From: a virus
UHGV virus genome: UHGV-0119120
DNA length: 34,560 nucleotides
Reading direction: 5' to 3' (one strand)
Position numbers and translations under genes: made by a program
Notes under the pieces: model-generated
The model's input: the letters and a program-made list of their open reading frames with translations, nothing else
What the model was told of the DNA's origin: nothing
Database searches by the model: none
In this document: positions 15,184 through 32,446 of the stretch, in pieces
How positions within the stretch are numbered: the stretch's first letter is position 1
Layout of the letters: each line of letters opens with the position of its first letter

Positions 15184-15228
15184 TATTAATCACCTTCAAT
15201 AAGTTACAGATCCTCTCATGGGTAGCTA

Positions 15229-15801: not shown

Positions 15802-15863
15802 GCTGCTTACTCTCCGTTAGATCTGTCATTTAGTTAAATTTAACTGCGTTGGGGGAGTCTCCA

Positions 15864-16218: not shown

Positions 16219-16224
16219 TGCTCC

Positions 16225-16788
16225 TTACTTCGTGCGATGCCAGAAACTGGCGTTGTCGGTGTTAATGCTGCGAATGGCGTCGCCTGTGGAGAGAATCTTC
16301 GGTGAAACGTTGTTAACTCGCATGTAGTCGCCAACCTGCTCCAGAACGTCGATAGCCTGATCAAGCTGAATCTCTGATAGCGGGGTCGGATGTACCGCAC
16401 TGAATGCCTCAGCGGGTGCGTAACGCAGCACATCAAGCGCAACAAGGCGAGGATCGGTATCAGGAAGGGCATTGTCATACTTTGGCGCTACAGCGCGTAC
16501 CAGGCGCATAAATTCAGCGTCCATTGACGTTGGCGCGGTGGAGGTCGTGGAAGCGCCGCTGCCACTGCGAGTAATCATGTCACTATCGCGGGTGTACATC
16601 CGACGCAGGCGGTCGCCAGTTGCAATGCGTGTTGCACGTTCCTGCTTAAGCGTCGTTGCAAGATTCGCAATGACGAGAGCCACAGGAAGCGAGCAGGTCA
16701 GCCTTTCGAACGTATCATCGGAGTAAGTCACCTCGACGGTACCACCAGCGTTATCACTTTCCAGATTAACATTGGTTATCTGTTTCAT
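16225..16788 (-). CDS. hypothetical protein, first gene of the island accessory module
   Basis: 187 aa ORF with AAGG RBS; preceded by a palindromic operator-like region. Confidence 0.45.
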   Translation of the reverse strand: MKQITNVNLESDNAGGTVEVTYSDDTFERLTCSLPVALVIANLATTLKQERATRIATGDRLRRMYTRDSDMITRSGSGASTTSTAPTSMDAEFMRLVRAVAPKYDNALPDTDPRLVALDVLRYAPAEAFSAVHPTPLSEIQLDQAIDVLEQVGDYMRVNNVSPKILSTGDAIRSINTDNASFWHRTK

Positions 16789-16823
16789 TGTTCATAACCT
16801 TTTGCGTTGTTTAAATTCTAATC

Positions 16824-16840
16824 ATTGCATAAATTGCAAT
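16824..16840. promoter_or_regulatory. perfect 17-bp palindrome ATTGCATAAATTGCAAT (candidate operator)
   Basis: Read directly; lies about 40-60 bp upstream of the 187 aa gene start, with a related half-site ATCATTGCG at 16851-16859. Confidence 0.35.
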
Positions 16841-16938
16841 GTTAGTAAATATCATTGCGTATATTGAAATGATAAATCGACGTGATACTATGACGGTGAT
16901 CCACCATTGTGTGATTGCATAAACATGGTTAACAAAAG

Positions 16939-16973
16939 CCCTCGCCTCTCCAGCGCGGGCTTTTTCTTTTCCG
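16939..16973. terminator. hairpin with flanking T/A runs (candidate bidirectional terminator between origin and accessory operon)
   Basis: AGCCCTCGC-CTCTCCA-GCGCGGGCT stem-loop (8/9 bp) followed by TTTTTCTTTT on the plus strand and preceded by AAAA. Confidence 0.4.
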
Positions 16974-17072
16974 CTCCGCAAAGTTGCCGTTTCCGCATAC
17001 TGTCGCTTAGGCGATGCCCCTCCAAATTCGTAATTACTCTCCGAAAAAAACTCTATAGATAAACAAAAACAT

Positions 17073-17365
17073 GTTGGTTCAGTTGGTTCAGTTGGTTCAA
17101 TTTGTAAAGATTGTTGTTTTATAAGGATTATTTCTTTCGGAGTGAACCAACAAAGCCCCATTTTGAACCAACAAACGCTATTTTCGTGTTGGTTCAGTGG
17201 GAAAGATTTACAGGCCAGCCAGAAAAGGGCGTTGGTTCAATAGCGGCATTTGTTGGTTCAAAATGGGGCTTTGTTGGTTCGGTGTTGGTTCACTTACAAG
17301 CATGTAAATGCATTAAATACATACACTTATATTAATTAAATAGTTACTGAACCAACTGAACCAAC
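17073..17365. repeat. iteron array, putative origin of replication
   Basis: At least 11 copies of GTTGGTTCA / TGAACCAAC, including three tandem copies at 17073-17099. A 29-bp perfect inverted repeat GAACCAACAAAGCCCCATTTTGAACCAAC sits at 17145-17173 and 17252-17280, with an AT-rich stretch at about 17300-17345. Directly downstream of the primase-helicase stop. Confidence 0.6.
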
Positions 17366-17390
17366 AAAAAAACATCTCGTATGTGTGTTT

Positions 17391-20171
17391 TTATTCTTCA
17401 CCCTCTATCTCGTCGGGTCGTAGCTGGAGCACATAAACGTTTATCTGGCGTCCATCAATTCGCGGGGATTTACGCTGATACCCCCTTCCGCTGGCTGGCG
17501 GTTTCAGCACCCCAGCCCCGGCCAGCACACGGGCAAACTGTTTCGCGTTGAATCCCTTCGCAATCTCACCTTCGAATGCTGCCGGGAACGTGTAGAACAC
17601 TATCGGATCAGCATCATGCGCCCCTTTCTGACGGTACCCGGCCAAATCCCGAATCGGCATGTCAGCCGGGTCATAAGGGTAAGGTGCAAATCGGCTCAGT
17701 CCGTATGCATTAAGAAACGCCTCTGCCTGCTCGATGATCTGCTTATGCTCACGGTTCCCCGTGCCAAACTCTTTCACCCAGGCGTTAAAGCCATGCTGGA
17801 TGGCGTCCCGGCTTTCCTGCTCCCCCCAGCCAGTGACAGGCATCCCCAGCACCAGCGCCGCCTCCAGAATAGCGAACCGCTCGCCTACACGATGAACCTG
17901 TTCGCCATAATCAGCAGGGATAAGACTACGCCAGCGCTCCTGCGCCGCTTTGACAGCTTGTTTTGCCTCCTGCTGGTGGCCTGCAAGCCATTTAATCCAT
18001 TCACGGCCTGCGGCTCCGTGGTTCGTCTGGTAAGCCTCTTTGAGTGCGTCGGCGTGTTGCTTCCCGTTCTGGTACTCATGGTGCGTTACTGATTTCTCCA
18101 TCGGTAAATTAAGCAATCGCACCAGTTGCCCGGCCTTAACTTTCAGCCCACCAGCAGAAAGAAACGTCTCAATGTCCATTTCCCCGGTACTGATCGCCAC
18201 GGTGCGCCAGCGCTTTAACTCACGGTTGCCGCCCTCCTTGGCCCCCTGTAGCTTTCCGGCACCGTTAAACAGCGTGTAAGCAGACGTAGCAACGTCTTTG
18301 GCGCTACTGCCCTGCCCCACTTCATCCAGCGGTAACAGGCTGTCGTTATGCGCTTCCGCTTCGTTGGCGATACCCAGCGCTGTACCGTACCAGGTAAGGC
18401 GCAAGGCATCCGGTTCACCGTATAAACTGCTGGCAATGTTGGCGGTGGTTGTCTTCCCTGCGCTGGACTGCTCGAAAAGATGCACGCCGAACCCGTCAGC
18501 GCCAACAAGCCCGATCAGCGGCGCAGAAAGCGCAGCAGCAACACCCAGCATCATTGACGGGTTTCCCAGCGCAAGACGCGCCACCGAATCACGCCAGCTT
18601 TCCGGCGTTCCACTGACGGTATAGCCACCAGCCGCCGCACTCCGACCACTGAATAACAGCGGTATCTCTGGCTCACCAATAACATCACCATCCGGCATGA
18701 TGTACGCCCCGTTGTGCCAGCCTGTGGTGTGGCTGATCTGCCATTCCTTGCCGCTACCAGTTCGCTGCAGCCAGTCGGCCAGAATTGCCCGCAACGATGG
18801 TTTGGTTGTCACACTGACACCGCCGTTTTTCAGCGTGCGCCATCCCTCACGGTCGCCAATGTCCTCCCATGGAAGCGCACGGGTAACTTGCCCCCGGTTG
18901 CCGGGGACGTCCCAACGCAGGATCAGAAAGCGCTGTCTGGCGTTATCACTCCCCGCACCAGCAATCTCCAGCGGAGAGCATAGCCACGCCTCGGTATTGA
19001 TAATTTCTCCTGTGTCTTTGTCCACTTTCGGGGTGATCCAGTGAATGCCATCCGCACGGCTCTCTACTCGCGGTTTCAGATCGTCGTCGATACCAAGTTT
19101 TTTCTTGCCGCCGTCGATAGCTGTCAGTGTCGCACCCACTTTCTTACCCTCCGGTTGATACATTGAGTCGTTAAATGCTGCTGTGGCCGCTTCGAGGCCG
19201 TATTGCTGGTGGTAGTCGTTCCAGTCCGCTTTATAGTCCACTGGTGGCATGGAAACCCAGCCAGAAACGGCTTTCGCGGCTTTCTCTGCGGCCTCCTTGC
19301 CAGTGTTAACTTTCACTCCTTTAATTCCGTCACTTTCGCCCATCTGGTCGTTATCTGCGGCAATGATGATTTGTGCCTGTGGGTACTTCCGGCGCATCAC
19401 TTCGGCAACGGGTAGCAGGTTGCCCGCGTCAATTGCTGCCACTGCCAGCGCGTCCGGGCGCATCAGGTGAACTGAAAGGGCCGTCGCCAGCCCCTCGGCA
19501 ATTAAAACGCTCTGCGGCGATTCTGGCGCGTTTACGGCATGATATGCCCCGCGCTTTGCTGAACCTGTCAGGAGTCGCTTCTCTCCCTGCGGTGTAATGG
19601 TTTGCGCTGCTGCCACTGCGCCGGATTCGTCCACCAGCTCCAGCAATAACGAACCATCAGGCATAACCGGATAGTTAAACCCGGTCAGCCCTTTTGATTG
19701 CAGGTAATCAGATTCGCCCTGTGTGGCACTCTGGCGCATTCCGGCATACAGACGGGCAAACGTAGCCCTTCGCTGCTCTGCGTCCCCTGCTGCCTGTTTC
19801 TGGCGCTCCTGCTCACGCTGCTGGCGGTCAGCTTCCAGTTGCTCCCTTCTATGGCTCGCTGCCACCGGGTCGGATTGCGCTGCCAGGTAATCAATACCCA
19901 GCACGTCAGCGGCAAGCTGTGCCGCCTCCGTAGTGTCGCAGTTGTTAACCCGCTTGATTAAATCCAGCCCGTCACCAGCGCCACACTGGTTGCAGATAAA
20001 GCTACCGCGCCCGTTGTCGTCGAATCTGAAACGGTCTTTTCCACCACATGCAGGGCATGGAGAATGGCGGCGCGATGAATCAGGCACGTCGATAGACAAC
20101 CCAGCCAGCACATAAGGCCAGCGCCCTGCTGCGGCGCTGGTCACTTCGCGGATAAGGTCGATATTACGCAT
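17391..20171 (-). CDS. primase-helicase (zinc ribbon + Toprim primase + P-loop NTPase)
   Basis: Likely start MRNIDLI with AGGAGG RBS. N-terminal CPACGGKDRFRF...CNQCG zinc ribbon; Toprim-like acidic motifs (LIAEGLATA, IIIAADNDQMGE); Walker A-like SSAGKTT. Confidence 0.8.
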   Translation of the reverse strand: MRNIDLIREVTSAAAGRWPYVLAGLSIDVPDSSRRHSPCPACGGKDRFRFDDNGRGSFICNQCGAGDGLDLIKRVNNCDTTEAAQLAADVLGIDYLAAQSDPVAASHRREQLEADRQQREQERQKQAAGDAEQRRATFARLYAGMRQSATQGESDYLQSKGLTGFNYPVMPDGSLLLELVDESGAVAAAQTITPQGEKRLLTGSAKRGAYHAVNAPESPQSVLIAEGLATALSVHLMRPDALAVAAIDAGNLLPVAEVMRRKYPQAQIIIAADNDQMGESDGIKGVKVNTGKEAAEKAAKAVSGWVSMPPVDYKADWNDYHQQYGLEAATAAFNDSMYQPEGKKVGATLTAIDGGKKKLGIDDDLKPRVESRADGIHWITPKVDKDTGEIINTEAWLCSPLEIAGAGSDNARQRFLILRWDVPGNRGQVTRALPWEDIGDREGWRTLKNGGVSVTTKPSLRAILADWLQRTGSGKEWQISHTTGWHNGAYIMPDGDVIGEPEIPLLFSGRSAAAGGYTVSGTPESWRDSVARLALGNPSMMLGVAAALSAPLIGLVGADGFGVHLFEQSSAGKTTTANIASSLYGEPDALRLTWYGTALGIANEAEAHNDSLLPLDEVGQGSSAKDVATSAYTLFNGAGKLQGAKEGGNRELKRWRTVAISTGEMDIETFLSAGGLKVKAGQLVRLLNLPMEKSVTHHEYQNGKQHADALKEAYQTNHGAAGREWIKWLAGHQQEAKQAVKAAQERWRSLIPADYGEQVHRVGERFAILEAALVLGMPVTGWGEQESRDAIQHGFNAWVKEFGTGNREHKQIIEQAEAFLNAYGLSRFAPYPYDPADMPIRDLAGYRQKGAHDADPIVFYTFPAAFEGEIAKGFNAKQFARVLAGAGVLKPPASGRGYQRKSPRIDGRQINVYVLQLRPDEIEGEE

Positions 20172-20505
20172 GGTTGCCTCCTGCCACGGTCGCGCCCATA
20201 TCATTAATCATGCTTTGCCATATCTCGCGCCCGACGTCAGTCAATCCGTCCTTAGTGACGCAACGATCAAGAAGCTCGATCCCCACGGTTTCCCACTGCG
20301 GGTAGAACACTTTCATGGCTGCCAGTGTGTAGCTATCGATCAGGCTGCGAACGCCTTTTACTCCATTGACGATTTCCACACGGACGGCGAGGCCGTCCGC
20401 ATCAACCATGAAATAGTCCCCGCCGCTGGTGGCGGTAATGTGGTTATACAGTGCCGACGCATACTTATTCGCCAGCGCATTCAGTCGGAAATTTTTAGTA
20501 ATCAT
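20164..20505 (-). CDS. hypothetical protein (replication operon)
   Basis: 113 aa ORF; stop overlaps the primase start (ATGCGTAA). Confidence 0.4.
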   Translation of the reverse strand: MITKNFRLNALANKYASALYNHITATSGGDYFMVDADGLAVRVEIVNGVKGVRSLIDSYTLAAMKVFYPQWETVGIELLDRCVTKDGLTDVGREIWQSMINDMGATVAGGNHA

Positions 20506-20514
20506 GTCGCCCCC

Positions 20515-21141
20515 TCAGTGCGCCAGCGGCATTTCAGGCCAGCCGTTTTCATCCAGTTCAGCTATAAAGCTGTTGTGAAGTTCAGCAAGCGTTTCACGCC
20601 CGAACGGGGTCAGCTCGCCGCGCTCCGTGTCGATCATGGCCTGATAAAAAACAATGGCGTTCGCTGTTCCCTGCTCAACGCCGTAGCGCTCAATCATTGC
20701 GCCCTCGATGTTGTTCGCCATCGCCAGCCGTTCAGCAAACGGGTAAACCACCATGCCCGCATTACCATTGGAGTAAATCGCCACCTGCGATGATGTGCCG
20801 TCAGCCTCAGTAACCGTGGTGGTGCCGTTCTCGCGCTTCATCTCAGAAACGAACGTCGCAGCAATCAGCCAGCGCCACATAGTGACGTTATGCTGCGCGG
20901 TGAAGTCGAACCAGCCACGCTCCCCGCCGTCAGCCACTGCCAAATGCAGGGCAAATCCTTCATCGGTCTTATTGTCATACTCACCCGCATCCAGACGTAC
21001 TACGACTTTTTCGTAGTTGATAAGAGCAACATGCTCATACATTCCGGCATCATTGCGGGTCATGATATTGACGCCGTGCGGTGTGGCTTCGGCGTGGAAC
21101 AGGTCGGGATTTCCCGGTTTAATGGTCAGTATATTGCTCAT
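20515..21141 (-). CDS. hypothetical protein (replication operon)
   Basis: 208 aa ORF, tightly packed in the operon. Confidence 0.45.
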   Translation of the reverse strand: MSNILTIKPGNPDLFHAEATPHGVNIMTRNDAGMYEHVALINYEKVVVRLDAGEYDNKTDEGFALHLAVADGGERGWFDFTAQHNVTMWRWLIAATFVSEMKRENGTTTVTEADGTSSQVAIYSNGNAGMVVYPFAERLAMANNIEGAMIERYGVEQGTANAIVFYQAMIDTERGELTPFGRETLAELHNSFIAELDENGWPEMPLAH

Positions 21142-21359
21142 GCTTTGCCCTCCCGATATTCACGCATTACATGGTCAGCTAGCTTGCTTTCAGCCTCGCT
21201 CATTGCTTCGGGCACACCGTGTAACAGCGTCAGAATGGAACCTATAAGGCGTGGTAAATCGGGATCTGTTTTATTGGTGGTGCTCTCCAGCCACATGGAC
21301 AAAACAGCCTGTGCCTGTTCAATCTGGCAGGCAGCATCAATCAGTTGTAACTGGCTCAT
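21138..21359 (-). CDS. hypothetical small protein
   Basis: 73 aa ORF with 4-nt overlaps to neighbours. Confidence 0.35.
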   Translation of the reverse strand: MSQLQLIDAACQIEQAQAVLSMWLESTTNKTDPDLPRLIGSILTLLHGVPEAMSEAESKLADHVMREYREGKA

Positions 21360-21619
21360 GCGCTGCCCTCCGCATCAATTCTGGCTATATCGACAATCGT
21401 CAGGACTTTACTAAGCCAGCAATACGCGATGGCTGCTTGCTCAACTTCGAGGAGTGGTAATAAATCGGTCATAACGTGAGCCAGCCCATTGCGGGCGCGG
21501 GTCATGCGTTCTGCGGTACGCTCTGCCAGCGTGAAAGAGTCAGGGTACGGCTGTTCGCGGGATAGCATCGCCTCGGCCTCAAGATCTGCAGGATGGCGAT
21601 AGATGGTATGAATGTTCAC
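21356..21619 (-). CDS. hypothetical small protein
   Basis: 87 aa ORF with GTG start, overlapping neighbours. Confidence 0.35.
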   Translation of the reverse strand: MNIHTIYRHPADLEAEAMLSREQPYPDSFTLAERTAERMTRARNGLAHVMTDLLPLLEVEQAAIAYCWLSKVLTIVDIARIDAEGSA

Positions 21620-21795
21620 GCTGCCACCTCCTGAATACGAGTAATACGAACGTGCTTATAACCGCCTTTATTCGCCAGTAGTTGCGCAGTCGATTTAGCT
21701 GTTTCTGGACTGGTGCTAGTCATGGTGTAGTGAATGCCGACGGTGTTACCGCGCTTGTTAACAGCGTATCCGTCGATCTGGAAGGTTTTACGCAT
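21616..21795 (-). CDS. hypothetical small protein (59 aa, below ORF-track cutoff)
   Basis: ATG overlaps the stop of the recombinase gene (AATGCGTAA); translation MRKTFQIDGYAVNKRGNTVGIHYTMTSTSPETAKSTAQLLANKGGYKHVRITRIQEVAA. Confidence 0.3.
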   Translation of the reverse strand: MRKTFQIDGYAVNKRGNTVGIHYTMTSTSPETAKSTAQLLANKGGYKHVRITRIQEVAA

Positions 21796-22666
21796 TTCCG
21801 ACCTCCATTGCTAAACGGGACTGGATAGCTGCCGCTTTACTGCCTAATTGCAGGTAAGTACGAGTTATCGCAGGGTTGCTATGACCCAGCATTTCAGAGG
21901 CCACTAATAGGCCCTGTTCGCCACCTGCGGACATGAGGTTAAAGGCGGCTATTTTGCGGCTTGAGTAGGCGCTCAGGCGCAATTTAGCGTTAATGAAACG
22001 GGTAAACCACGCCATGACGCCATGAAGTTTGCGCCAGATGGTTTGGCGAGTAACGCTACCTTCCAGACGTTGACAACGGTTACTTTCGATTTGAGAGCGG
22101 GAAAATACCAGGTCGTCCTCCACCAGATTCCGATCCTGACGGTCACGCAGCCGCTTGATAATGCCGGGGGGTAACTGTTTGGTGTCGTGCTTGACGTCAG
22201 CCTTAGCCACCAGCCCGAACACAATCGCCTGTTCTTCGTCGTTCATATCGGCGGCCAGTTCATCACAGCCGATACTATCCCACTTCATGTAGGCGATATG
22301 GTCAGCGGCGAGCCGCGCGGCGTCCTTGCGCTGCTGGCGCACAATTTCAATACCTTTGCGGGTTGCCCGCGCTTCTGCGGCTTTGGTCTGTTTGGAAACG
22401 ATAATTGTCGCCTGTCCAGTTTCCCAATTGATGCAGGAATAGCGCAGGTTGCAAACGTCGCTGGTACGCCAGCCGGTTACGGTCGCAATATCCCACCAGA
22501 GCAACACCCAATCGGGCTGTGTCTGCTGGATGCGCTCGCGTAGCTTGCGCTGCTCGTCACGGTCATAGACAGGGGTCATGGTGCGACTGCCCTTTGTGCT
22601 CGCCGCTTTAACGACATTGCCGCGCAGCTCGCGGGCTTTGGCTGTCAGAGTCTGGAGGTTAAACAT
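21788..22666 (-). CDS. tyrosine recombinase / integrase-like protein (second recombinase)
   Basis: Likely start MFNLQTL at 22666; C-terminal LGHSNPAITRTYLQ resembles the His...Tyr catalytic end of tyrosine recombinases; candidate box I Arg in TGWRTSDV. Confidence 0.55.
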   Translation of the reverse strand: MFNLQTLTAKARELRGNVVKAASTKGSRTMTPVYDRDEQRKLRERIQQTQPDWVLLWWDIATVTGWRTSDVCNLRYSCINWETGQATIIVSKQTKAAEARATRKGIEIVRQQRKDAARLAADHIAYMKWDSIGCDELAADMNDEEQAIVFGLVAKADVKHDTKQLPPGIIKRLRDRQDRNLVEDDLVFSRSQIESNRCQRLEGSVTRQTIWRKLHGVMAWFTRFINAKLRLSAYSSRKIAAFNLMSAGGEQGLLVASEMLGHSNPAITRTYLQLGSKAAAIQSRLAMEVGNA

Positions 22667-22847
22667 GACGCACCTCCGGCACTGGCAGACGTGCGGCCAG
22701 AGACAAAATAAAGTGCGGCGCAAGGATGCGGCGGGCTTCGCGTTCGGTCGCAGCCTCAACGGACAGACGGCAAGGTTTGGCTTTTTTATCGTGGCGATTC
22801 AGCGCGAGAAAGCGCCAGGTGAATTTTGAGTGTGCGGATCTAGCCAT
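22659..22847 (-). CDS. small protein upstream of the recombinase (possibly Icd-like)
   Basis: 62 aa ORF; stop overlaps the recombinase ATG (CATGTTTAA); ends ...FILSLAARLPVPE. Family assignment is from memory only. Confidence 0.3.
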   Translation of the reverse strand: MARSAHSKFTWRFLALNRHDKKAKPCRLSVEAATEREARRILAPHFILSLAARLPVPEVRHV

Positions 22848-23167
22848 TTTTAGCGGCTCCTAGAACATATTGAAGGAGTCTCGCCAGATGCTGCTAAACA
22901 TGGGTGGCGAGACGTGACGGGGTTAGCAGACTGGCGTTCTAGGAAACCAGCAGGCGTTAAGCCTCCCCACCACGCCCCGCCATAAATCGGGGGTATGGTT
23001 GGTTTTCGGGCGTAAAAATACCGCTATACGGAAATCAGCGGCTACCCGCTAGAACGTTCAGGCTGCTAAACCCGGCACCCGTTTTGTGAGGTGCGAAATA
23101 ATCATAACCACACTACCCCGTTAAGCGCAAGGGAAATATCCCCTGCGCCCACAATGCAAACTTGTTA

Positions 23168-24238
23168 TTAGTACCCGCGAGAAGCGTAAACTCGTGCCAT
23201 GCCAGCCCAATGAGAGAAAAGAATTTCCCACTTAATTGGGTTGTAGGTAATACTTCCATCGACTGCGGCAGCATTCCATGCCCGATCAGAAATAGAGCTA
23301 TCTTTAGCAGTTTTCCCCCATTCAACAATATCCCTTGCTAAAGCCTGTACACATGCTCGACTGACTACCTTTTCGTCAACGTACGCCCCAACATCAGAGC
23401 ATGACTCCATACTCATGTTCAGGCTATTTTTAAGGGACTCCAGCCCGGCCACTGACATAAAGCGACGACCATTAGCGTATGCAACACCGTCATTCCTGAT
23501 AGTGAACTTAACAGTGTGGAATGCGTCAACAATCATCCGCTGCTCTGGCGTCGGGTTCTGCCATAGCACAAGGTTAATCTCTCTCTCAGAAGCTATTGAT
23601 TCTGCTTTCTCACGCTTAACTCGTGCATCCCGTTCTGCCTGGTATTGTTTTTGATTTTCATCATGAGCCTTTTGGTAACTAGAGGCTAATGCGTCTCTGT
23701 TTTTGGCAAATGCTGCAATGCTATTTTTGAAATCGCTTCTGCTAACCTTGTTTAACCCCATACTCCAGCGGTCATTTTCGTAATCATCATAAATGGCATC
23801 AACTTTTGCCGGATTACTCAGCACAGTCGCCAGATTAACCGGAATTTTAGCCATCTCGTCACTGATTCTCGCTACATGTTCGAAAGTCGATATAGAGCCA
23901 ACTTCATGACTCCCATACTCATGATAAGCGGCATAAAAAATTGGAATAGATTGAGGTTTTTCGTTCACTGACTTAATGATGCTTTTTTCATCACATGACT
24001 GTTCACCCCATTTGAAAACACTTTTCCCACCATTTTTGTATGTGTTGCAATCATCAATACCCAAACGAACCAGCGCATCCCATCCGGGCCGTTTCTTGTA
24101 ATCCTCGCTCTTGACAACATGCATTGTGGTTAGGGCTTTCGCAGGATCTAACTTGCCAGCGGTACAAGACACGATAGGAAAGGCCAGAGAAGCGCAGGCT
24201 GCTATCCTGAAAAGGCTCGTCAATCTTTCTTTTTTCAT
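23168..24238 (-). CDS. lipoprotein, unknown function (island cargo)
   Basis: 356 aa; N-terminal MKKERLTSLFRIAACASLAFPIVSC has a lipobox (IVSC); central Lys/Glu-rich coiled-coil segment; gene is visibly more AT-rich than its flanks. Confidence 0.55.
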   Translation of the reverse strand: MKKERLTSLFRIAACASLAFPIVSCTAGKLDPAKALTTMHVVKSEDYKKRPGWDALVRLGIDDCNTYKNGGKSVFKWGEQSCDEKSIIKSVNEKPQSIPIFYAAYHEYGSHEVGSISTFEHVARISDEMAKIPVNLATVLSNPAKVDAIYDDYENDRWSMGLNKVSRSDFKNSIAAFAKNRDALASSYQKAHDENQKQYQAERDARVKREKAESIASEREINLVLWQNPTPEQRMIVDAFHTVKFTIRNDGVAYANGRRFMSVAGLESLKNSLNMSMESCSDVGAYVDEKVVSRACVQALARDIVEWGKTAKDSSISDRAWNAAAVDGSITYNPIKWEILFSHWAGMARVYASRGY

Positions 24239-24402
24239 CGTCCTAATGCTCTTTCAAACCAAGAATGTAGGACATAGTAAATTGTGGTTAATGGCAAGTC
24301 GATATAAAGGCCGGGTTATTGGCTTCGGTGCCAATATCATTTCTCCGAAATTTCATAACGCCTGTAATCGCTCGTTTCCCCATCTTGGGGACATTTCAAA
24401 AC

Positions 24403-24523
24403 TGCGAATCAAAGTGCGAATGGAACTGCGAATTCGCAAAGAGAGAGCGCCGCTCAAAGCAGGCCGGATAAGGCTTCGCGGACATATTGCGAATGCGAAT
24501 CCACCAGAAACGAAACGCGAATC
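24403..24523. repeat. cluster of TGCGAAT heptamer repeats (candidate operator array)
   Basis: TGCGAAT at 24403, 24415 and 24427 (12-bp phasing), the third within the palindrome TGCGAATTCGCA; further copies at 24488, 24495 (GCGAAT) and 24517 (CGCGAAT). Lies 165-285 bp upstream of the lipoprotein gene. Confidence 0.4.
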
Positions 24524-25079
24524 ACCCATAAACAAAACCGATACGCAGGGAGCGTACTGCCCGTATTCAATCGGCCGAAAAGTCAGCCGATTAAAATCAT
24601 GCCCGGCTATCCCCTGAAATTTCAGGAGATCGAGAGCCACCAGCAGAGAACCGTTCATGCCATCGGTAACTTGCAGCCCGAAGCTCAAATCTGAGCGTTG
24701 ACCGCCAGCCAGAAGAAACCATTTTAAATCCCGCGCCTTCTCTTTGGATGAACAGGGTTACTCCCCGTAATGCTGTGAACTGCCACGATGATTCGGGGTT
24801 GTGTTGCGCTGGCCTTTGAGTCCCGCACAAACACTGACCCACAAAATTTTTGTAGGTGACTGGCCCTCTTGATGAGGTGCTGTTTTGCGTAACCCTTAAT
24901 GAGTTGTGCAAAGGCTCAACCCTTTAAAAGGGTTGCCTAACCACCGGCGATAGTAATAACCGCCAACCTATGAACACTATGAACACCTTTGAGCATTTTT
25001 CTATAAACATTCCACTACTGCCCTATTTGATGCCTTTCTCTGGCTGGCCTGTGTAAGTTACCGTTGCTGGGAACTGACA

Positions 25080-25115
25080 ATAAAAAAGGCTTGCCCCTCT
25101 CAGGTAACAAGCCTT
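25080..25115 (-). terminator. rho-independent terminator downstream of the AlpA-like gene
   Basis: Minus-strand hairpin AAGGCTTG-(14 nt)-CAAGCCTT followed by TTTTTT, about 20 nt after the stop at 25133. Confidence 0.5.
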
Positions 25116-25132
25116 GTCTATCGCTCTGGATC

Positions 25133-25345
25133 TCACTCACTACAGATTCCGCGCTTTTGGCTCTGTCTTCCGATCCACGCCTCCACCTCATCGCGATACC
25201 AGCAATTGCGGCCGCCAACTTTGAAGGGCATCGGAAAGCCGTTCCCCTCATCCTTCAGAAATTCATAGAACGCAGAATCAGAACGGTAGCGTAGACGGGC
25301 TTTAACTTCGACTTTGAGCAAAATATCACTGTTAGATATGGACAT
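25133..25345 (-). CDS. alpA: AlpA-family transcriptional regulator / excisionase-like protein
   Basis: 70 aa; ...GFPMPFKVGGRNCWYRDEVEAWI matches the AlpA helix-turn-helix pattern; GAGG RBS and two TATAAT-like elements upstream. Confidence 0.6.
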   Translation of the reverse strand: MSISNSDILLKVEVKARLRYRSDSAFYEFLKDEGNGFPMPFKVGGRNCWYRDEVEAWIGRQSQKRGICSE

Positions 25346-25400
25346 AAAAACCTCATTATATATTCGATATAATTATATATGATTTGAATAAAAAAAACGC
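25346..25400 (-). promoter_or_regulatory. AT-rich candidate promoter for the AlpA-like gene
   Basis: Minus strand shows TATAAT-like hexamers within 40 nt upstream of the start codon, between the integrase terminator and the gene. Confidence 0.3.
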
Positions 25401-25420
25401 ATTCCGGTTAGCTTTGGGCA

Positions 25421-25446
25421 TAAAAAAAGCTGGCTTAAAGCCAGCT
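25421..25446 (-). terminator. rho-independent terminator downstream of the P4-type integrase
   Basis: Perfect inverted repeat AGCTGGCTT-A-AAGCCAGCT followed on the minus strand by a run of 7 T. Confidence 0.55.
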
Positions 25447-25487
25447 ATACCCGTTTGAAATCATGATTATCCAGAAATGGATGTGCC

Positions 25488-26717
25488 TTACACAACCAGC
25501 CTCAAGCCCTTATCGCCGCTGGTCTCCAGTATTTCGCCACACTCTGCGGCCTCGATAAAGTCCCCCCACCATTGCATTAAAACCCGGCGTTTTTCCAGAT
25601 AGTCGCTACGGTTATAAACATTTCGAATCGCATCGGCGCTTTTGTGAGCGAGTGCAGCCTCAATCACATCAGGGTTGAACCCCTCGTCATTTAAAACTGT
25701 AGATGCCAACGCCCTGAACCCATGAGGAACAATCAGCCCTTTAAACGACGTTTTGTGTATCCCGGCCTGAGTCGCACAGCGTGAGATCGGCTTATTTTCT
25801 TTTCGCCATGAGGGGAAAACATAATCGCAGCGCTTCCACTTTTCGGCCTCTTTAAGCACGTTTATAGCCTGGCTCGATAATGGGACTACGTGGGGGCGCT
25901 TTCCTTTCATCCGGCTTGCAGGGATTTGCCAGATTGAGTTATCAAAATCAATCTCATTCCAGAGAGCGCCGCCAGCCTCCGAAGGCCGGACCATCGTAAT
26001 GATCTGAAATAATAATGCCAGCTTTGATGGCTCCCATAAGCTCAACTCGTTCCATGCGCTTAAAAATTCGGGCAACCGCTCTTTCTGTAAAGTCGCTCTT
26101 GGCTCGTTTTTTTCAGCCGGGAATGCTTTACCAATTTTCGATAGCGGGTTGTGCTCAATAACCCCAATGTTTACCGCATAATCCATTATGGCGTTGATGG
26201 TAATAACCATTTTCGTAAGCGTTGATGGCCTTTCCCTGAAAGGTTTAAAAGCCTGAATAGTATCGGCTGCGTTTATTTTATGTACCGTGGTATGCCTAAA
26301 AATCGTGGAAAGATGCTTCAACGTCACATTGTGCGATTCAAGCGTGTTGCTTCTCGCACCTTCTTTAATCTTGATTTTTAGCCATTCATCGGCAACGGCC
26401 TGAAATGACTGCGCGTACATTTTACGCTGTTCATTCCTGGCATCTTTTTTGACTTCGTTCGGATCTATCCCTCGCGCTACCATACGGCGCAGTTTCGAAC
26501 GTTCCTCCCTCGCTTCGGACAAAGTAAACTCCGGGTATCGTCCAATAGTATAGGTTTGTCTCTTCTTCGTTACCGGGTGTACATACCGAAAACGCCATGA
26601 CTTACCGCCCCGGCTTGTGATGTAAAGCAACAAACCGAAACCATCGTGCAAACTGAAATCCTTGCCCTGTGCCTTCGCGCTTTTCACTTCGACGCTAGTT
26701 AGTGGCCTAACAATCAT
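25488..26717 (-). CDS. int: P4-type tyrosine integrase
   Basis: 409 aa; N-terminal ...LHDGFGLLLYITSRGGKSWRFRY is the typical arm-binding (DUF4102-like) signature of P4-family integrases. Confidence 0.75.
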   Translation of the reverse strand: MIVRPLTSVEVKSAKAQGKDFSLHDGFGLLLYITSRGGKSWRFRYVHPVTKKRQTYTIGRYPEFTLSEAREERSKLRRMVARGIDPNEVKKDARNEQRKMYAQSFQAVADEWLKIKIKEGARSNTLESHNVTLKHLSTIFRHTTVHKINAADTIQAFKPFRERPSTLTKMVITINAIMDYAVNIGVIEHNPLSKIGKAFPAEKNEPRATLQKERLPEFLSAWNELSLWEPSKLALLFQIITMVRPSEAGGALWNEIDFDNSIWQIPASRMKGKRPHVVPLSSQAINVLKEAEKWKRCDYVFPSWRKENKPISRCATQAGIHKTSFKGLIVPHGFRALASTVLNDEGFNPDVIEAALAHKSADAIRNVYNRSDYLEKRRVLMQWWGDFIEAAECGEILETSGDKGLRLVV

Positions 26718-26931
26718 TCAACACCTCTCTGGCTACCATGTAATGCAAACGGCGCATGATTCTCTTTCTAGTCCCTCATGTACCGAATCAAAGCGAAATC
26801 CGGCGAATAAATCCGCACATGTTCGGAGTGTCATTTTTATGGTTCAGGCCAGTAACGCCGTATGATTCCGAACGATAACGCACTGATTAATAGATATTAG
26901 TTGCATAAGGTACAGATATGCAGTCATTGGA

Positions 26932-28164
26932 TTATCCTTTGCGGTTAGACCAGAAGTCGGCGTTTTGTTTGTTCAGGGAAGCGATGCTGGTCATGCCCAT
27001 ATTTGGACGTTGTGCATCGCCCGTGGTGCTGCGGGTGTTTCGCCCTTTGGCAATCTCAGACACGGCGTTAAACGCCATATCGACCGATTGCTTGGGCAAT
27101 TTGCGGATATCTGCATCACCGACAACCTGGCGAACCAGTGTTTTGTCAGCGGCGGACAGCACATCACGTTTGAACGCGGTCGGTTTCACCTTACGGCTCA
27201 GATCGATACCCGGAACGATAACTTCGGCACGATAAGCAGCGTCACCGGTAATCGTGGTTTCCTCTTCGTCGTCCTCACCGTCGCCGGTAGGGTCTTTGTT
27301 ATCTTTGCCGTCAGGCTTATCGTCGTTATCGCCCGTTGCAGTACCTTCCAGCTTAGCCAGCAGGGCTTTGAGCAAGGTTTTGATATCGTCCTCGCCGTCG
27401 CCGGTTGGCTCTCCGCCCATTTCCGGCTTTTTGTCCGGCAATGGTTGCTGCGGTGAAAGGTTAATGTTGAGGTTAACGCCGCTCGGCAGATCCCCTTCGT
27501 CACCCGTTACCGCCGCTGGCGCAGAGTCCAGCAGTTCGTTCATGGTGTCAGCGTCACCCGTTTTGATGGCCGTGCGCATGCGGGTCCACCAGCTTTTCTT
27601 TTGATTTGCCATTGTGTCTCTGTCTCCAATTGCACAACGATTTCCGGCTCTGCCTTTAGGGACAAGAGCCACATGGTTTCCGGTGATATCGACCTGCTCG
27701 GCTTTTCCGGGTTCGGTCTGCTCGTACTCAGCGTCATAGCCGCACGACACTTCGCGCAGACCATCTTCGATCAGCTGAATGGCGCTTTCGTCTTTGACGA
27801 TAAGGTCAGCCAGCATCCAATCAGACTGATCACCTGTCCCGCGCCGAACGTTCTGAAGATGCCCGACCGCAAGCTCTTTCCAGTTCTCGGGGTTGACCAG
27901 CCGCACATTCCCGTTTTCATCTTCAGGATGCAGGATCGTGATGCTCATCCCTTCGAATGAGGCGAGCGTGGCCGGATGGAATACCTGCTCAGGAGAACGC
28001 GTGACGACTATTTCACCGAACTTATCGGGTTTCAGTTTTGGCAGGTCATCAGCACCATAGAGCTGCTTACCTGTTCGTCCTATCGGCACGTCTTTGCACA
28101 GCAACGAGCCGTCAGCCAGCTGATAGCGGGTTTCCCCCAGCCGGGTATTGAAAAAATATTTCAT
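26932..28164 (-). CDS. head scaffold/protease-like protein (DUF2213-like)
   Basis: 410 aa with acidic repeat region (GDGEDD...GDGEDDEEE) typical of scaffolding; follows the minor head protein gene. Confidence 0.5.
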   Translation of the reverse strand: MKYFFNTRLGETRYQLADGSLLCKDVPIGRTGKQLYGADDLPKLKPDKFGEIVVTRSPEQVFHPATLASFEGMSITILHPEDENGNVRLVNPENWKELAVGHLQNVRRGTGDQSDWMLADLIVKDESAIQLIEDGLREVSCGYDAEYEQTEPGKAEQVDITGNHVALVPKGRAGNRCAIGDRDTMANQKKSWWTRMRTAIKTGDADTMNELLDSAPAAVTGDEGDLPSGVNLNINLSPQQPLPDKKPEMGGEPTGDGEDDIKTLLKALLAKLEGTATGDNDDKPDGKDNKDPTGDGEDDEEETTITGDAAYRAEVIVPGIDLSRKVKPTAFKRDVLSAADKTLVRQVVGDADIRKLPKQSVDMAFNAVSEIAKGRNTRSTTGDAQRPNMGMTSIASLNKQNADFWSNRKG

Positions 28165-28178
28165 GGTTTACCTGCGAT

Positions 28179-28952
28179 TCAGGCGAGATAAGAATGAGGG
28201 TTGGGGAAGACGATTTCTTTGTAACAGCGGCAGTTCGGGAGCTCGCCAGCGTGACCGGTCATGCCGTCAAGCGTTGGAGGTCGGCCCCATTCGACAAACT
28301 TCCCTTCCATCTCTCGATGAGAATGCCGGACGTCGCCATCTTCGGCTGTACGCCAGATATAACCATTCGAGCCGATTGACAGCGCACGCGCCTGATCCAG
28401 TGCACCGGTTGCGCGCCCAAGCTCAGTCCGGGCGATAAGGTTCGCTCGTGAGCGTGACACGTCACCGGAAGCAGCTATCTCTTTCGCGAATGGCTCAGCG
28501 CGGCCACCAGTTACTACAGCCTCGATGGCCTTGTTCTGAATGTCATACACCCGATCGGCGGCCTCAAGAGGCAGAGATTTGATGTACTTAATTTGCTCGG
28601 CGACGATGGATTTCATCACCTGGCCTACCGGGGCGCGGTCGACCATGTTGCGTAGTTCTGCGCTGATGTTCCGACTGTGCTGACGCCACTGCTTTTCATT
28701 CTGGCGCGCAATGTCGGCGGTGAAGCTCTCAGCAACCTTAGTCGCCCAGGGGGTGATGATTTCGCTGTAGCGCTCCAGCGCATCCATTATTTCGGTGACG
28801 CTATCGTTTGAACCATCGTAGCGACCATTTACGATATCCCCGACCGCCCGCGCTATCTGCCGTAGGCTCGTTCGATATCGGATCTCCGCCTGGCGACTCT
28901 GGCGGTTTGTCGCCAAGTTCGCCGATGCCTGGCGGCGCTTCGTCTTCGGCAT
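28179..28952 (-). CDS. minor head protein (Mu F-like head morphogenesis protein)
   Basis: Position after the portal gene. The listed start overlaps the portal 3' end by about 150 nt, so the true start may be internal (for example the ATG at 28787). Confidence 0.5.
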   Translation of the reverse strand: MPKTKRRQASANLATNRQSRQAEIRYRTSLRQIARAVGDIVNGRYDGSNDSVTEIMDALERYSEIITPWATKVAESFTADIARQNEKQWRQHSRNISAELRNMVDRAPVGQVMKSIVAEQIKYIKSLPLEAADRVYDIQNKAIEAVVTGGRAEPFAKEIAASGDVSRSRANLIARTELGRATGALDQARALSIGSNGYIWRTAEDGDVRHSHREMEGKFVEWGRPPTLDGMTGHAGELPNCRCYKEIVFPNPHSYLA

Positions 28953-30270
28953 TCTCGATATCCTCGTCGGTAATGGATGCCCCGATGCCAGTGACGTCAG
29001 AGTTTTCGCGCAGGTCGGTCATCGCCGCCTTACGCGTCATCAATCCGTCGCCCAGCGCGGTGCTGATCGCGGTGGTGGTGTTTACGGCCACCGTTGAGCG
29101 GTCAACATCAGACATTTGCCATAGCGGGTTAAACTCAAACGTGAAATCGCCCGGCAGCGGCTTTCCGAGTTCCGAGCGGTGCATAATGTCCAGTATCCGG
29201 CGCATCGGCAGCCGTAAGCGGCGCTCCTGCAATGAGCTCACCCGGTCGTAATAGTTGGCGAGGTCTGCATCACCAGTAGAGAAGCCTTTCGGGGATTGAC
29301 CGAACAGGCGTACCAGCGGGATACCAACGGCACCGCTGATCTGCTCAGCAAACTGCGAAAGAATGTCATCCAGACCACTAAAGCTGTACTGGTGGGTTTC
29401 GAACTTATCCCGCGAGTCCATGAGCGTCATACCTTCATTGCTCTGGAACTGGCGGATCAGGTCGATGTTCTTCAGCAACGCTTCGAACGCCGGGCCTCCA
29501 AGCGCGATAAGCTCGCGCAACTTCTCCACGCTATAGGTACGCAGATGCGCTTTATAGACCAGCTGCGCCGCGCCGACAGTAGCGCTATCGAACGCAGTAA
29601 GCCGATCCCAGATACGCTCTACAACCGACATTCCCCATTCGTTTTCGGTCATCTTCTGCTGGAATGGCAGCGTGACGCCATCAAAGCGGATCAGGCGGCT
29701 GTGATGGATGCGCCAGGCCGGAATGCCCGTTGCGGTGGTCACCACGTCGTAAAACTCAGGCTTGCCGAGGTCCGGCCCCATCTCTTTAATGCGGCGTGTC
29801 AGCACCGGGTTAATCATCCAGCGGTCGAGCGGGAGAATGCCCTTAAACTTGCCCTCGCCAATGGTTTCGAGTCGCAGCGGGGTCATTGGTGCTTGCCCCT
29901 CGATCATGATGAAGCCGACCGCGCCGCCGTAGAGGCGCGACCATTTCAGCACGTCGTTCAGCGCATCCCAGATCTGCAACTCATCCAGTTGCGCTTCGAG
30001 GGTGCCACGGTCTTTGGCGTCAATCTCCGAAGTGATGCGAATGCCCTTTCGGGTCATATCGTCCGGGATAGCGTCGACCGCTTCACCGATAACCCACGAA
30101 CCGCGATATGACCATTCCACCAGCATGCGGTTGCGGCTGGTGAAGTTCGCCCGGTAGGTCGATGCTGAATGCTGGTTAGGCGTCTGCATCCCAACGCGGG
30201 CGACGAAGTTCTCGTAGCCGTCAGCGGTGGCCTGTGCAGTTCTCCGCAGGGCTTGTTTGTTTCGTGCCAT
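28801..30270 (-). CDS. portal protein
   Basis: 489 aa ORF immediately downstream of the large terminase (start overlaps its stop), canonical order and size. Confidence 0.65.
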   Translation of the reverse strand: MARNKQALRRTAQATADGYENFVARVGMQTPNQHSASTYRANFTSRNRMLVEWSYRGSWVIGEAVDAIPDDMTRKGIRITSEIDAKDRGTLEAQLDELQIWDALNDVLKWSRLYGGAVGFIMIEGQAPMTPLRLETIGEGKFKGILPLDRWMINPVLTRRIKEMGPDLGKPEFYDVVTTATGIPAWRIHHSRLIRFDGVTLPFQQKMTENEWGMSVVERIWDRLTAFDSATVGAAQLVYKAHLRTYSVEKLRELIALGGPAFEALLKNIDLIRQFQSNEGMTLMDSRDKFETHQYSFSGLDDILSQFAEQISGAVGIPLVRLFGQSPKGFSTGDADLANYYDRVSSLQERRLRLPMRRILDIMHRSELGKPLPGDFTFEFNPLWQMSDVDRSTVAVNTTTAISTALGDGLMTRKAAMTDLRENSDVTGIGASITDEDIENAEDEAPPGIGELGDKPPESPGGDPISNEPTADSAGGRGYRKWSLRWFKR

Positions 30271-31892
30271 CAGGCCTGTCTCCCTAGCAGCTCCCAGATG
30301 TTCAGGGCTGAATTCATTGGCGCGTAGCTGATCATCACCGAGTCGGCAAGGTTTGGCGACCGGGTTCCATCAGGCTGTTTATCAATAACGATTTTTCCCA
30401 CACCATTAATGGAATAGGTCGGCTGCGAAAGCTCGATGATGAGTTTATCTTTGAGTGCCATGCTACTGCTGATTGAGATGATTTCGTCCGGGTTGTAATC
30501 CATACCTTCAACCACGGCGCGCCAGGTATTCTGAAAAAGTTTACGTAACCGCCACCAGCTCTGGGCTTTGGCGTTAGCGAAGAAGTCCTTGTTCAGGCGG
30601 GCGGCCTGTCCGTTGTCCCCGCGAACAGCTTCGTCGTCCGGATCAAATACCGCGCCACTACCTCGAAACGGTGTGGCGAGTATTGACGGTCGGCGCGCAG
30701 CGTTACGCAGTTCGTTGATAGCGCGTGCATCGCCGCGAACGCCAGCGCCCAACCCGTCCTCGTCAAAGCGAAACTCTTCGAGGTTGTCCTGTTCGCAAAA
30801 ACCGAAGACCTTCTCGACGGACTGATAAATGTCGCTGCCCACACCAGACCATTCCCGCACATTTTCCAGGAGGAAGCCATGACGGGTGGAAAAGGCATTT
30901 TTGTCCCTGCCTTCATCAGCGACATCCATCGCGCCAAGTCGTTTGCCTGTTGGCTGGATACCCAGTTTGATATGTGCATCAACGGCAGCCTGTACCCATT
31001 CGGATGGAATCAGGACGCCTTCCGCTGATGCGCTGTAGTTCAGATCAAGTTCCTGTGCCACCACCACCGGATTATCGATTTTCTCGCATTCCCTGCGATA
31101 CCACTCTTCATCCTTGCGAGGATCATCCCGCCAGTGGAATGTGAATACCGGTATCTTCCCGCCATGACGCTTCTGAGCGAACGGGTTAGCCATGCCGTTA
31201 ACTGAACTCAGGTCGATACGGCAACGCGTCGTTTGTGACAACGCCGCATCAATCAGCAGAGGACGCTGAAGGAATGCAGCCTCATCAACCAGATAAAGCG
31301 TGGTACGGTCACCACGACCAATATTATCGCCAGCCTCGCCTTTGATAACGGCACCAGTTTCAGGAAACTCAACACGCATATATGGCGCGTGCTTCTTCTC
31401 GCTCCACGAACCGCGAAACTCTACAGGTAGCGTTTCCACGAACTTGCGTGCCTTCCAGAACAATGCTTTCGGGTCACCAGTGCTGTCGACGTATTCCTCT
31501 TTACGGGAGCCGAAACCGATAACCATTTCTTTGTTGAAGAGACAAAGCGAGCAGGCCAGTCCGATCGCGGTCCAACTGAGCCCCATTTCACGGGATTTTT
31601 CGGTAATACCATTCTCCCGATTGCCCCAGCGTTCCATAATCCAGTGGATCCACTCCTCCTGCTTAGGGAAGAGTAAAAACGGAATGGTCACCGGCAGGCC
31701 ATAATCAATATTACGCGGGTCCGTTGTCATGCCCCAGTCGATGATGAACTGAGCCGGGTTGGTTCGGTAAAACTGTTTTAGTGCTGGCAATATTTCAGGG
31801 TTCTGGCGAATGCGCTGTAAGCGTTCCATCCGCCATTCAAAAACCATCTGGTAATCAGGATGTTTAAAATCGAAGGGAAATGGTAACGGCAT
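30270..31892 (-). CDS. terL: terminase large subunit
   Basis: 540 aa; Walker B-like LYLVDEAAF; follows the small terminase gene with a 2-nt gap. Confidence 0.75.
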
Positions 31893-31894
31893 AC

Positions 31895-32446
31895 TTAGCC
31901 CATCATTTTTTTATACGCTTCTGCAGCCTGCTCCGGCGTTAAGTTGGTAATTTCTGTTCTGACTGGTCCTCCGTCAGCACCAGTCACTTCATTTTTGACA
32001 TTGTCTTTAAACGCCTGAACAGAAACATGACGCCCGAGCAACTCAAGGTTTTTAACCTTATCAGGCCATTTGATTTTCTTCAGAAGTGCGGCGCTATCTG
32101 CGGATACTATCTCCACGACATCCATTCCTGATAGCGTTGTGCGCCATACCTTAGGCCAGTCTTTAATGGGCTTTAGCTCACCGTTTTGCAGGAGAATGTC
32201 GAGCACATCCATCTGGTCGATTTCAATAAGGCGATTAAGTACATATTCTGCATTAATACCAACAAGATCATTGCGTTGCGCTTTCAGTTCGGCGATTCTG
32301 AATTGTATGTCAGGTTTTGACAGGTTTTCGGATGCGGTACGGTTAGCTGTCTTTGCGCTGTACCCCGCCCGAATAGCCGCTTGTGTGGCGTTTAAATCGA
32401 TGAGGTACTCGCGACAGAACATCTCTTGTTTGTCGGTGAGTGCCAT
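31895..32446 (-). CDS. terS: terminase small subunit
   Basis: 183 aa; N-terminal [34 protein letters not shown]... matches the Terminase_2-type HTH N-terminus. Confidence 0.7.

Follow-up and report, generated by a model that had tools for sequence, protein, structure and literature searches.

A non-coding small-terminase gene fragment as a candidate captured packaging site in a prophage-borne satellite island

The virus genome UHGV-0119120 (34,560 nucleotides; hereafter the window, to whose numbering all coordinates refer unless another locus is named) is a prophage carrying a satellite island, in which a gene-poor stretch of 894 bp (24239-25132) lies between a lipoprotein gene and an AlpA-like gene, alpA. 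Within this stretch, a conserved part termed block B (Table 1) is very probably a non-coding derivative of the linker region of a phage small-terminase gene, terS. On balance, we lean towards the view that B is a captured pac site, i.e., a recognition site for the small terminase TerS, which the island has kept as a mimic of the pac site for packaging by a helper phage. The binding of TerS to the short repeats of B and the start of packaging at B are suggested by a coupling between the type of the TerS helix-turn-helix (HTH) domain and the type of repeat found in the terS gene. A packaging site is the cis-element still missing from the island, because its replication origin (ori) and attachment (att) sites have been identified.

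The route to terS was a 36-nt BLAST match, which led to a prophage gene of E. coli ABWA45 (locus L001) located upstream of a gene for a PBSX-type large terminase (TerL). This gene (L001 19062-19817) is a phrog_370 'terminase small subunit' (E=1.7e-75) and contains both a TGCGAAT/TGCGAATTCGCA array and the box CACCAGAAACGAAACG. The Smith-Waterman score of B against it is 59, compared with 19.9 +/- 2.3 for shuffled sequences, and the right half of B matches the terS genes of GZ7, RothD and L001 with z-scores of 9.4, 5.5 and 4.9, respectively. In tblastn comparisons of B with TerS, the collinear peptides ANxSANxxANSQ, PETKR, KPIR and PP..PGN were recovered in three frames, stops included. The unit TGCGAAT-N5-TGCGAATTCGCA is present twice in the type-I terS genes (defined below) of L001 and RothD, and CACCAGAAACGAAACGCG, within the second repeat cluster of B, is identical to the terS sequence encoding SPETKR. 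Only approximately codons 45-110 of terS are recognizable in B, the HTH and the C-terminal two-thirds being absent. The matching segment, 24398-24609, represents the linker between the HTH and the core domain, with nothing else of the gene left. To the left of 24398, i.e., in the 5' flank and part A, no significant similarity to the terS 5' region was found (z <= 1.5), and a supposed surviving start codon and HTH at 24291-24398 (the 'ATGGCAA' and 'ISPK' resemblance) was dropped at this value. No intact small-terminase open reading frame (ORF) combining HTH, linker and C-terminal domain is present in B, and a type-I HTH is not encoded in any part of the window.

For comparison, we used the sister islands of four E. 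coli genomes, of Citrobacter youngae and Apirhabdus apintestini, and of six IMG/VR contigs. Such a comparison across homologous islands had been proposed in the earlier note, and it divided the stretch into four parts, one of which, B, is conserved throughout. The earlier impression that the stretch holds no convincing ORF stands: ORFs of 104-168 aa are present on both strands of the 894 bp, without conservation in the homologues, across which stops and 1-nt indels break them. Within B, stops occur in L003, L004 and L022, accompanied by 1-nt indels; the TerS-like frame lacks a start codon in the window and is interrupted by a stop in both L004 and L022. The variable sites of B are distributed over the three codon phases as 28/15/22 (p=0.14), i.e., without periodicity. 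Three candidate coding sequences were rejected: the plus-strand ORF 24111-24617, the minus-strand ORF 24353-24688 (in EC2001 annotated as a 'hypothetical protein') and the TerS-like frame itself. They are ruled out by stops and indels, by the absence of a start codon and by third positions that show no bias. The decayed gene envisaged earlier as one explanation of the stretch was recovered in the core at 24398-24609, a frameshifted non-coding derivative of the small-terminase linker.

The TGCGAAT repeats noticed earlier at 12-bp spacing are indeed located on the plus strand at 24403, 24415 and 24427, the third copy being part of the palindrome TGCGAATTCGCA (24427-24438). Further copies had been placed near 24488-24523; those at 24488 and 24494 are exact, and the one at 24516 is the degenerate CGCGAAT. 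Six of the 13 exact copies in the whole 34.5-kb window, counted on both strands, fall inside 98 bp, and the total of 13 barely exceeds chance (mean 7.4); the signal is the clustering of TGCGAAT, not its whole-window count. A loose scan of viral and metagenome collections for three consecutive TGCGAAT-N5 units returned mostly unrelated 12-nt tandem repeats, six viral loci being true homologues, and no match to B was found in the plasmid collection. Both additional palindromes reported earlier exist as well: CCTGAAATTTCAGG is located at 24613-24626, one base off the interval 24612-24625 first given for it, and AACCCTTTAAAAGGGTT at 24918-24934 belongs to a full palindrome at 24917-24935. Four perfect palindromes with arms of at least 6 were counted in the 894 bp, where 0.49 were expected; for arms of at least 7 the count is two and the expectation 0.11, and 0.8% of first-order Markov simulations attain this count.

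The repeats of B match the TGCGAAT array inside type-I terS genes, an array whose own pac status is predicted from the following pattern. In phrog_370-type terS genes, the DNA between the N-terminal HTH and the oligomerisation domain holds four to seven copies of a 7-8 bp motif. Among nine terS genes sampled, four pairings of HTH and repeat were distinguished: (i) type I, with the HTH signature ...GISPKEWCEAQGLNYSTAKRYIK and five to six copies of TGCGAAT (L001, RothD); (ii) type II, with the signature ...LSLRDIGDKYGVTEGAIRKRAKKFDW and seven copies of GTACGCA (GZ7, PDP110P2, Mulock, Chronis); (iii) type III, with TGCGCAA (GER2); and (iv) type IV, with CGATCATGA (an Stx2 phage and PhiR5_2), the sampled Stx2-type terS carrying GATC-containing repeats. 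Chronis combines a type-II HTH and type-II repeats with RothD-like downstream sequence, a switch implying that HTH and repeats travel together through recombination. Among 46 IMG/VR loci chosen solely by their TGCGAAT array, 45 have a type-I N-terminus combined with varying C-terminal domains and TerL partners, and the remaining locus, L240, has no detectable TerS match. Co-inheritance of a DNA-binding domain with a specific array in its own gene would be as expected for a pac site.

Block B is ~86-92% identical among E. coli, Citrobacter youngae, Apirhabdus and the six IMG/VR contigs, and its repeats are under extra constraint. Across seven homologues, variation affects two of the 39 TGCGAAT motif columns and 64 of the 234 other columns of B (Fisher p=0.002), and none of the motif columns of cluster 1 varies in these homologues. 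Divergence of B between lineages is ~10%, compared with 17-45% at four-fold sites of most neighbouring genes. Judging from its changing surroundings, B also behaves as a portable module: the ~270 bp lies between the lipoprotein or icd gene and alpA in most loci, and in L004 and L022 it sits with the same boundaries between ori and a gene of 187 aa, within unrelated flanks. A deletion in L001 starts at 24610 and leaves the terS-derived segment intact. A reading of B as integrase arm-type sites was set aside, B being at least 0.8 kb away from the integrase gene (int) and over 2 kb from both att cores.

These data bear directly on the alternative that B is an inert relic, i.e., the functionless remains of a terS gene once carried by the island or by a recombination partner, which persists through recent divergence. 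B is plainly a broken gene fragment in surroundings full of deletions and lost cassettes; moreover, the window phage lacks a cognate TerS, a related island lacks B, and mosaicism leaves the neutral rate uncertain. A relic should not, however, have repeats significantly more conserved than the remainder of B, nor be kept as the same ~270 bp at two genomic positions with unrelated flanks, and it would have to account for the survival of the repeat-bearing linker alone, never of the HTH or C-terminal parts, at least two times and from different terS types. We consider this explanation rather unlikely.

The second case of linker-only survival comes from a scan for type-II arrays, which yielded 85 loci, nearly all of them inside intact type-II terS genes. 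In the exceptions, L293 and L315, a non-coding GTACGCA array shows homology to the linker of type-II terS (z=33 and 30, respectively); start codons, HTH and C-terminal part are missing in both, and there are flanking stops. L293 shares with the window the TTGGTTCA type of ori and the C-type hairpin element, and L315 is G5-like, its array adjoining a DUF2280 gene. Linker-only retention in these two loci and in the window indicates that it happened at least two times with different specificities, an outcome that a wholly inert relic would hardly explain. More tentatively, enterobacterial satellites resembling phage-inducible chromosomal islands (PICIs) may have captured just the repeat-bearing terS linker as a portable non-coding pac module on at least two occasions (TGCGAAT here; GTACGCA in L293 and L315), the pac sites of this terS family being HTH-type-specific repeats of 7-8 bp within the gene; this generalization seems possible to us, though somewhat short of probable. 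As a separate observation, the GTACGCA arrays of L293 (~7350-7600) and L315 (~5000-5270) are followed by a cluster of TGCGCAA-type (type-III-like) motifs, and the region may carry recognition repeats for more than one TerS type.

The 5' region of type-I terS is present at full length in eight of 5426 complete E. coli genomes, and B is present in four. Both occur together in ABWA45 and ET791, where terS lies ~8 kb from B in the host prophage of the island. The IMG/VR contig 3300045988_113726 also combines a type-I terS with an island region that is ~98.6% identical to 24206-30296 of the window, the identity being 99.9% across the 894-bp stretch. In all, three sister islands reside in prophages whose terS has TGCGAAT repeats like those of B; on the tentative generalization given above, several satellites would live in the head operon of the prophage whose terS they mimic.

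A number of points weigh against a captured pac site. The TerS of the window phage is an unrelated Terminase_2 protein (31895-32446) with no sequence in common with the island, and B is without a visible cognate partner in the window; ECONIH5 and EC2001 likewise have a mismatched TerS. In some islands there is a DUF2280 TerS-like gene, and packaging specificity may come from it by another route. The related tRNA-Thr island of E. coli G5 carries such a gene and lacks B, so B is not essential to this island family. The estimate of constraint is confounded by mosaic recombination, int being just 6% diverged at four-fold sites in some pairs, and the coupling of HTH and repeats could partly be due to neighbouring DNA being inherited together. 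Neither an experiment nor a public dataset was found that maps pac to the repeats of the phrog_370 terS family.

If B is a captured pac site, the island would excise after induction and replicate from its own ori, a type-I TerS provided by the host prophage or by a co-resident or infecting phage would bind the TGCGAAT array in B, and the bound TerS would recruit TerL, with headful packaging of island concatemers starting nearby. Keeping ~200 bp of the helper terS and losing the rest would then be a simple route to headful packaging. The repeat type, equal to the TerS HTH type, would predict which phages mobilise which islands in E. coli, Klebsiella and their relatives, and the same rule would predict where lateral or generalised transduction starts in a clinically relevant group of prophages that includes Stx-type phages. 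It would also locate the pac sites of a widespread terS family occurring in Stx-type, Klebsiella and E. coli prophages. If B is a relic only, the region would be an ordinary, decayed cargo site in a satellite.

A protein-binding array could also act outside packaging, either as a decoy that titrates helper TerS from the phage pac or as an operator at which a regulator of the island or the phage would control neighbouring genes. In favour of this are the phasing, partial palindromy and selective conservation of the repeats, and interference with helper packaging is common among satellites (PMC11417361; PMC6739421). An operator is at odds with the inconstant neighbour of B, which is the lipoprotein gene, icd or ori depending on the locus, and with the lack of any sigma-70-like promoter within 24100-25500. 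A decoy would be compatible with a role as pac site and would depend on TerS binding in the same way. We judge a non-packaging array improbable. The operator array suggested in the earlier note is thus retained in part: the repeats look like a selectively kept protein-binding array, with the likely binder being the TerS of a helper phage, acting in packaging, and not a transcription factor.

The two hairpins in the right part of B raise the alternative of a regulatory RNA transcribed from the minus strand, e.g., an antisense RNA to the helper terS mRNA or a structured leader. Among homologues, the hairpin at 24566-24595 has one pair altered on both sides (C..A vs G..C on the plus strand, corresponding to U.G vs G-C on the minus strand), and the hairpin at 24609-24630, which is kept as CCTGAGATTTCAGG in all full-length homologues and lost in the L001 deletion, varies as U.G vs U-A, so that pairing in both hairpins is kept only on the minus strand. 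The consensus fold amounts to -77.7 kcal/mol on this strand vs -55.9 kcal/mol, and a terminator-like hairpin followed by a T-run is found at 24557-24541 on the minus strand. Against such an RNA, the two-sided change is a single one in 87 predicted pairs over five sequences, and the 'terminator' hairpin is apparently a legacy of terS coding sequence, as its surroundings align to the GZ7 terS. The stretch gave no Rfam match at the gathering threshold in the covariance-model scan proposed earlier (best sub-threshold match, E=0.53), the best match of 24150-25250 in Rfam 15 was Qrr with 20.6 bits against a threshold of 50, the fold z-scores are -1.5 and -0.6, and no promoter-like site was detected. 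A minus-strand RNA seems quite improbable to us, and the same Rfam, folding and promoter results speak against the structured RNA locus that had been offered as one option for the whole stretch. Separately, the first hairpin with its flanking bases, ATTCAATCGGCCGAAAAGTCAGCCGATTAAAA (24565-24596), matches at 30 of 32 nt a segment within a 'putative DNA-binding protein' gene in 91 phage records, mostly of Jerseyvirus-type Salmonella phages, a clue judged to be uninformative; a second hairpin similar to ATTCAATCGGCCGAAAAGTCAGCCGATTAAAA is present in L004 at ~7365-7390.

The remaining alternative is a secondary replication element in the form of an iteron ori or a site like crr of P4; in its favour, B has short direct and inverted repeats and, in L004 and L022, adjoins ori. 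However, the island already has a canonical ori, with 11 TTGGTTCA iterons, directly after the primase gene; the motif of B is a different one, and B has 51% GC and no AT-rich stretch (40-bp minimum of 40%, compared with 15% in ori). The crr site of P4 shares iterons with its ori, and B, unlike P4 crr, is devoid of the iterons of the island's ori. The idea of B as a replication origin was rejected once both the window and L004 had proved to have the TTGGTTCA ori next to the primase gene, and a secondary element is scarcely credible. L004 has the same arrangement around its origin, and the origin type is shared by L004, L022 and L293.

The stretch treated in the earlier note as one unit of about 900 bp is instead made up of four pieces of differing history (parts A to D, Table 1) and, from the comparison of loci, is an accessory hot-spot between alpA and the leftward operon of the satellite. 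Part A was found only in loci with the lipoprotein gene (the window, L001, L002, L007 and L032) and is replaced by other sequence in L003, L005 and L059, as well as in L004 and L022. Part C, as aligned with its counterparts, is an inverted-repeat-bounded cassette that has lost a toxin-antitoxin or antitoxin-like gene. In L002, L005, L059, L047 and ET791, its place is taken by a TumE/HVO_A0114 toxin-antitoxin pair of 792 bp; the site is empty in L003 (EC2001), and a 282-bp deletion (~24610-24889) is found in L001. The 416 bp present in the window contain no conserved ORF and no intact toxin or antitoxin gene, the ORFs being of at most 36 aa or unconserved. In other icd-primase islands, the conserved element of part C forms the 3' flank of a small RHH/HicB-like gene; no remnant of this gene was found in C, where the 3' flank element alone remains. 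Its terminal palindrome (24917-24935) is preserved in L237 through three two-sided changes (CCCTCTTaAAGAGGG vs AACCCTTTaAAAGGGTT). Homology to all sister islands restarts exactly at 25073, the first position of part D. The stretch is largely explained by known biology, as a terS fossil, a decayed cassette and a terminator in an accessory region.

Table 1. Features of the gene-poor stretch and of the surrounding satellite island
Feature	Position	Strand	Description
Part A	24239-24380		non-coding upstream flank of lipoprotein gene; hairpin 24317-24336
Part B	24381-24656		conserved non-coding block with terS-derived core; proposed pac element
terS-linker-homologous segment of B	24398-24609	+	~codons 45-110 of phrog_370-type terS, with frame-breaking indels
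Repeat cluster 1	24403-24438	+	TGCGAAT at 24403, 24415, 24427 and inverted copy 24432-24438 (palindrome TGCGAATTCGCA)
Repeat cluster 2	24488-24522	+	TGCGAATGCGAAT (24488-24500), then CACCAGAAACGAAACG and degenerate CGCGAAT (24516-24522)
Hairpin TTCAATCGGCCGA / TCAGCCGATTAAA	24566-24595		inverted repeat
Hairpin/palindrome ATCCCCTGAAATTTCAGGAGAT	24609-24630		contains CCTGAAATTTCAGG; right edge of terS-derived segment
Part C	24657-25072		variable cassette, non-coding here; 15-nt inverted repeats CATCGGTAACTTGCA (24661-24675) and TGTAAGTTACCGTTG (25052-25066)
Conserved element within C	24746-24935	+	split by 73-bp insert (24785-24857); ends in palindrome CAACCCTTTAAAAGGGTTG (24917-24935)
Part D	25073-25132	-	alpA 3' flank and terminator; hairpin AAGGCTTG...CAAGCCTT, then T-run on minus strand; inverted repeat 25080-25121
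Integrative satellite island	14383-26902		12.5 kb; inserted between two phage head genes
Replication origin (ori)	17060-17370		TTGGTTCA iterons (11 exact, both orientations) and a stretch of 15-21% GC; immediately downstream of primase gene
TOPRIM/DUF927 primase gene	17391-20204		island gene
Second tyrosine recombinase	21788-22759		island gene; an Icd-like gene is also in the island
C4 antisense RNA	22900-22987	-	Rfam RF01695, 75 bits; only Rfam match in the window
Lipoprotein gene	23168-24238	-	
alpA	25133-25345	-	AlpA-like; weak Pfam AlpA match
int	25488-26717		P4-type integrase; island gene

The island interrupts a prophage whose tail and head genes occupy 1-14366 and whose DUF2213, portal, TerL and TerS genes occupy 26932-32446. 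Its att cores are GGTACAGGAATGCA (14369-14382) and GGTACAGATATGCA (26909-26922), and the site without an insertion, CCGGTACAGATATGCAGTC, is seen in L261 and L273, two phages that lack the island. The insertion lies 3 nt upstream of the start codon of a Gp24-like gene (13884-14366), just after the DUF2213 gene, and the identical insertion site is used in ABWA45, ECONIH5, EC2001 and ET791. At this position among head genes, the island should break up the late operon until excision. By its gene content, with annotation drawn from the sister loci, the island is a PICI/P4-like satellite of 12.5 kb that encodes an integrase, an AlpA-type regulator and a primase with adjacent ori; no Rpp, intact terS or capsid-size genes were found in it. 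The C4 RNA sits upstream of the Icd-like gene, i.e., the satellite includes an immunity module of the P1/P4 type.

Several further observations concern the mosaic structure of the island and its prophage. The window phage is ~95-99% identical to ABWA45-type phages (L001/L245) through the portal gene, and at ~30296-30359 it switches to a different terminase module, with a 540-aa TerL and a Terminase_2 TerS in place of a PBSX-type TerL and a type-I TerS; from the alignment, the mosaic junction at this position is clean. At 28 four-fold sites, alpA of the window shows 82% divergence from the alleles of L002, L003 and L005, compared with 6-17% in the adjacent int, which points to replacement of the allele at that position. 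The left end of the island is a second variable hot-spot, occupied in the window by a DUF5681 protein, whose homologues have no informative names, and by an 82-aa ORF (14749-15183 and 14508-14756, respectively). The same hot-spot holds a DUF2280 TerS-like protein in ET791 and G5 (L285 3869-4342 and L291 6358-6831, respectively). Over its last 39 aa, the ET791 protein shares 59% identity with the C-terminal end of the Terminase_2 TerS of the window phage (31895-32446), an indication that the satellite encodes a chimeric small terminase able to dock to TerL. In addition, (G/A)TAAGTTAC, a motif with AGATC often behind it, is found repeatedly at module junctions of the island (14480-14488, 15199-15207, 24666-24674 on the minus strand, and 25053-25061), as well as at cassette ends in L002 and L285; it is thus found at both ends of cassette C, at the left-end cassette and beside the DUF2280 gene of ET791. 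With at most one mismatch, 10 matches were counted vs 3.6 expected. The second tyrosine recombinase (21788-22759) could use the motif as its recombination site; intermediates of inversion or exchange were not observed.

Among known systems, the PLE satellites (PLEs, elements that resemble phage-inducible chromosomal islands) of Vibrio cholerae provide the closest parallel, as they carry an 89-bp non-coding mimic of the ICP1 pac beside their ori, which is needed for transduction (Boyd and Seed 2024; PMC11417361). This mimic has 71% identity to the helper pac with a 14-bp identical core and is conserved among the satellites, and its deletion abolishes or reduces transduction (PMC11417361). Block B is likewise a non-coding satellite stretch that resembles a presumed packaging site of a helper, with ~120-210 bp of homology and identical 7-bp repeats, and it also adjoins ori, but in L004 and L022. 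Unlike the PLE mimic, which is a copy of an intergenic pac from a lytic phage with an unknown TerS, B has its source inside terS and is a recognizable piece of a pseudogene; moreover, the satellite described here is temperate and resides inside a prophage. PLE also needs Gpi, GpsA and GpsB, for which no equivalents were identified in the island.

E. coli PICIs combine a helper-type cos site with Rpp (PMC6739421), and Staphylococcus aureus pathogenicity islands (SaPIs) encode their own terS. With PICIs and P4, the island shares int, alpA and a primase with adjacent iteron ori, together with the need to be recognized by a helper terminase. Unlike PICIs and SaPIs, it has neither Rpp nor an intact terS, its predicted signal is pac-like and not cos-like, and some of its relatives carry the DUF2280 TerS-like gene.

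The location of a recognition sequence within the small-terminase gene itself has precedents. The pac site of P1, located in pacA, consists of repeated short motifs (hexamers). In P22, pac lies inside terS (gene 3) (PMC11260489). The phrog_370 family would resemble both phages in this respect, the role of its repeats as pac being predicted from the HTH-repeat coupling. Unlike the phrog_370 genes, B is devoid of the HTH and the C-terminal two-thirds and is frameshifted, i.e., it is a fragment and not a member gene. Like the terS genes of Klebsiella phages RothD and GZ7 and the 'DNA packaging protein' gene of Stx phages, it contains the repeat array, the CACCAGAAACGAAAC box and AAACCGATACGC...CCCGG in the same order.

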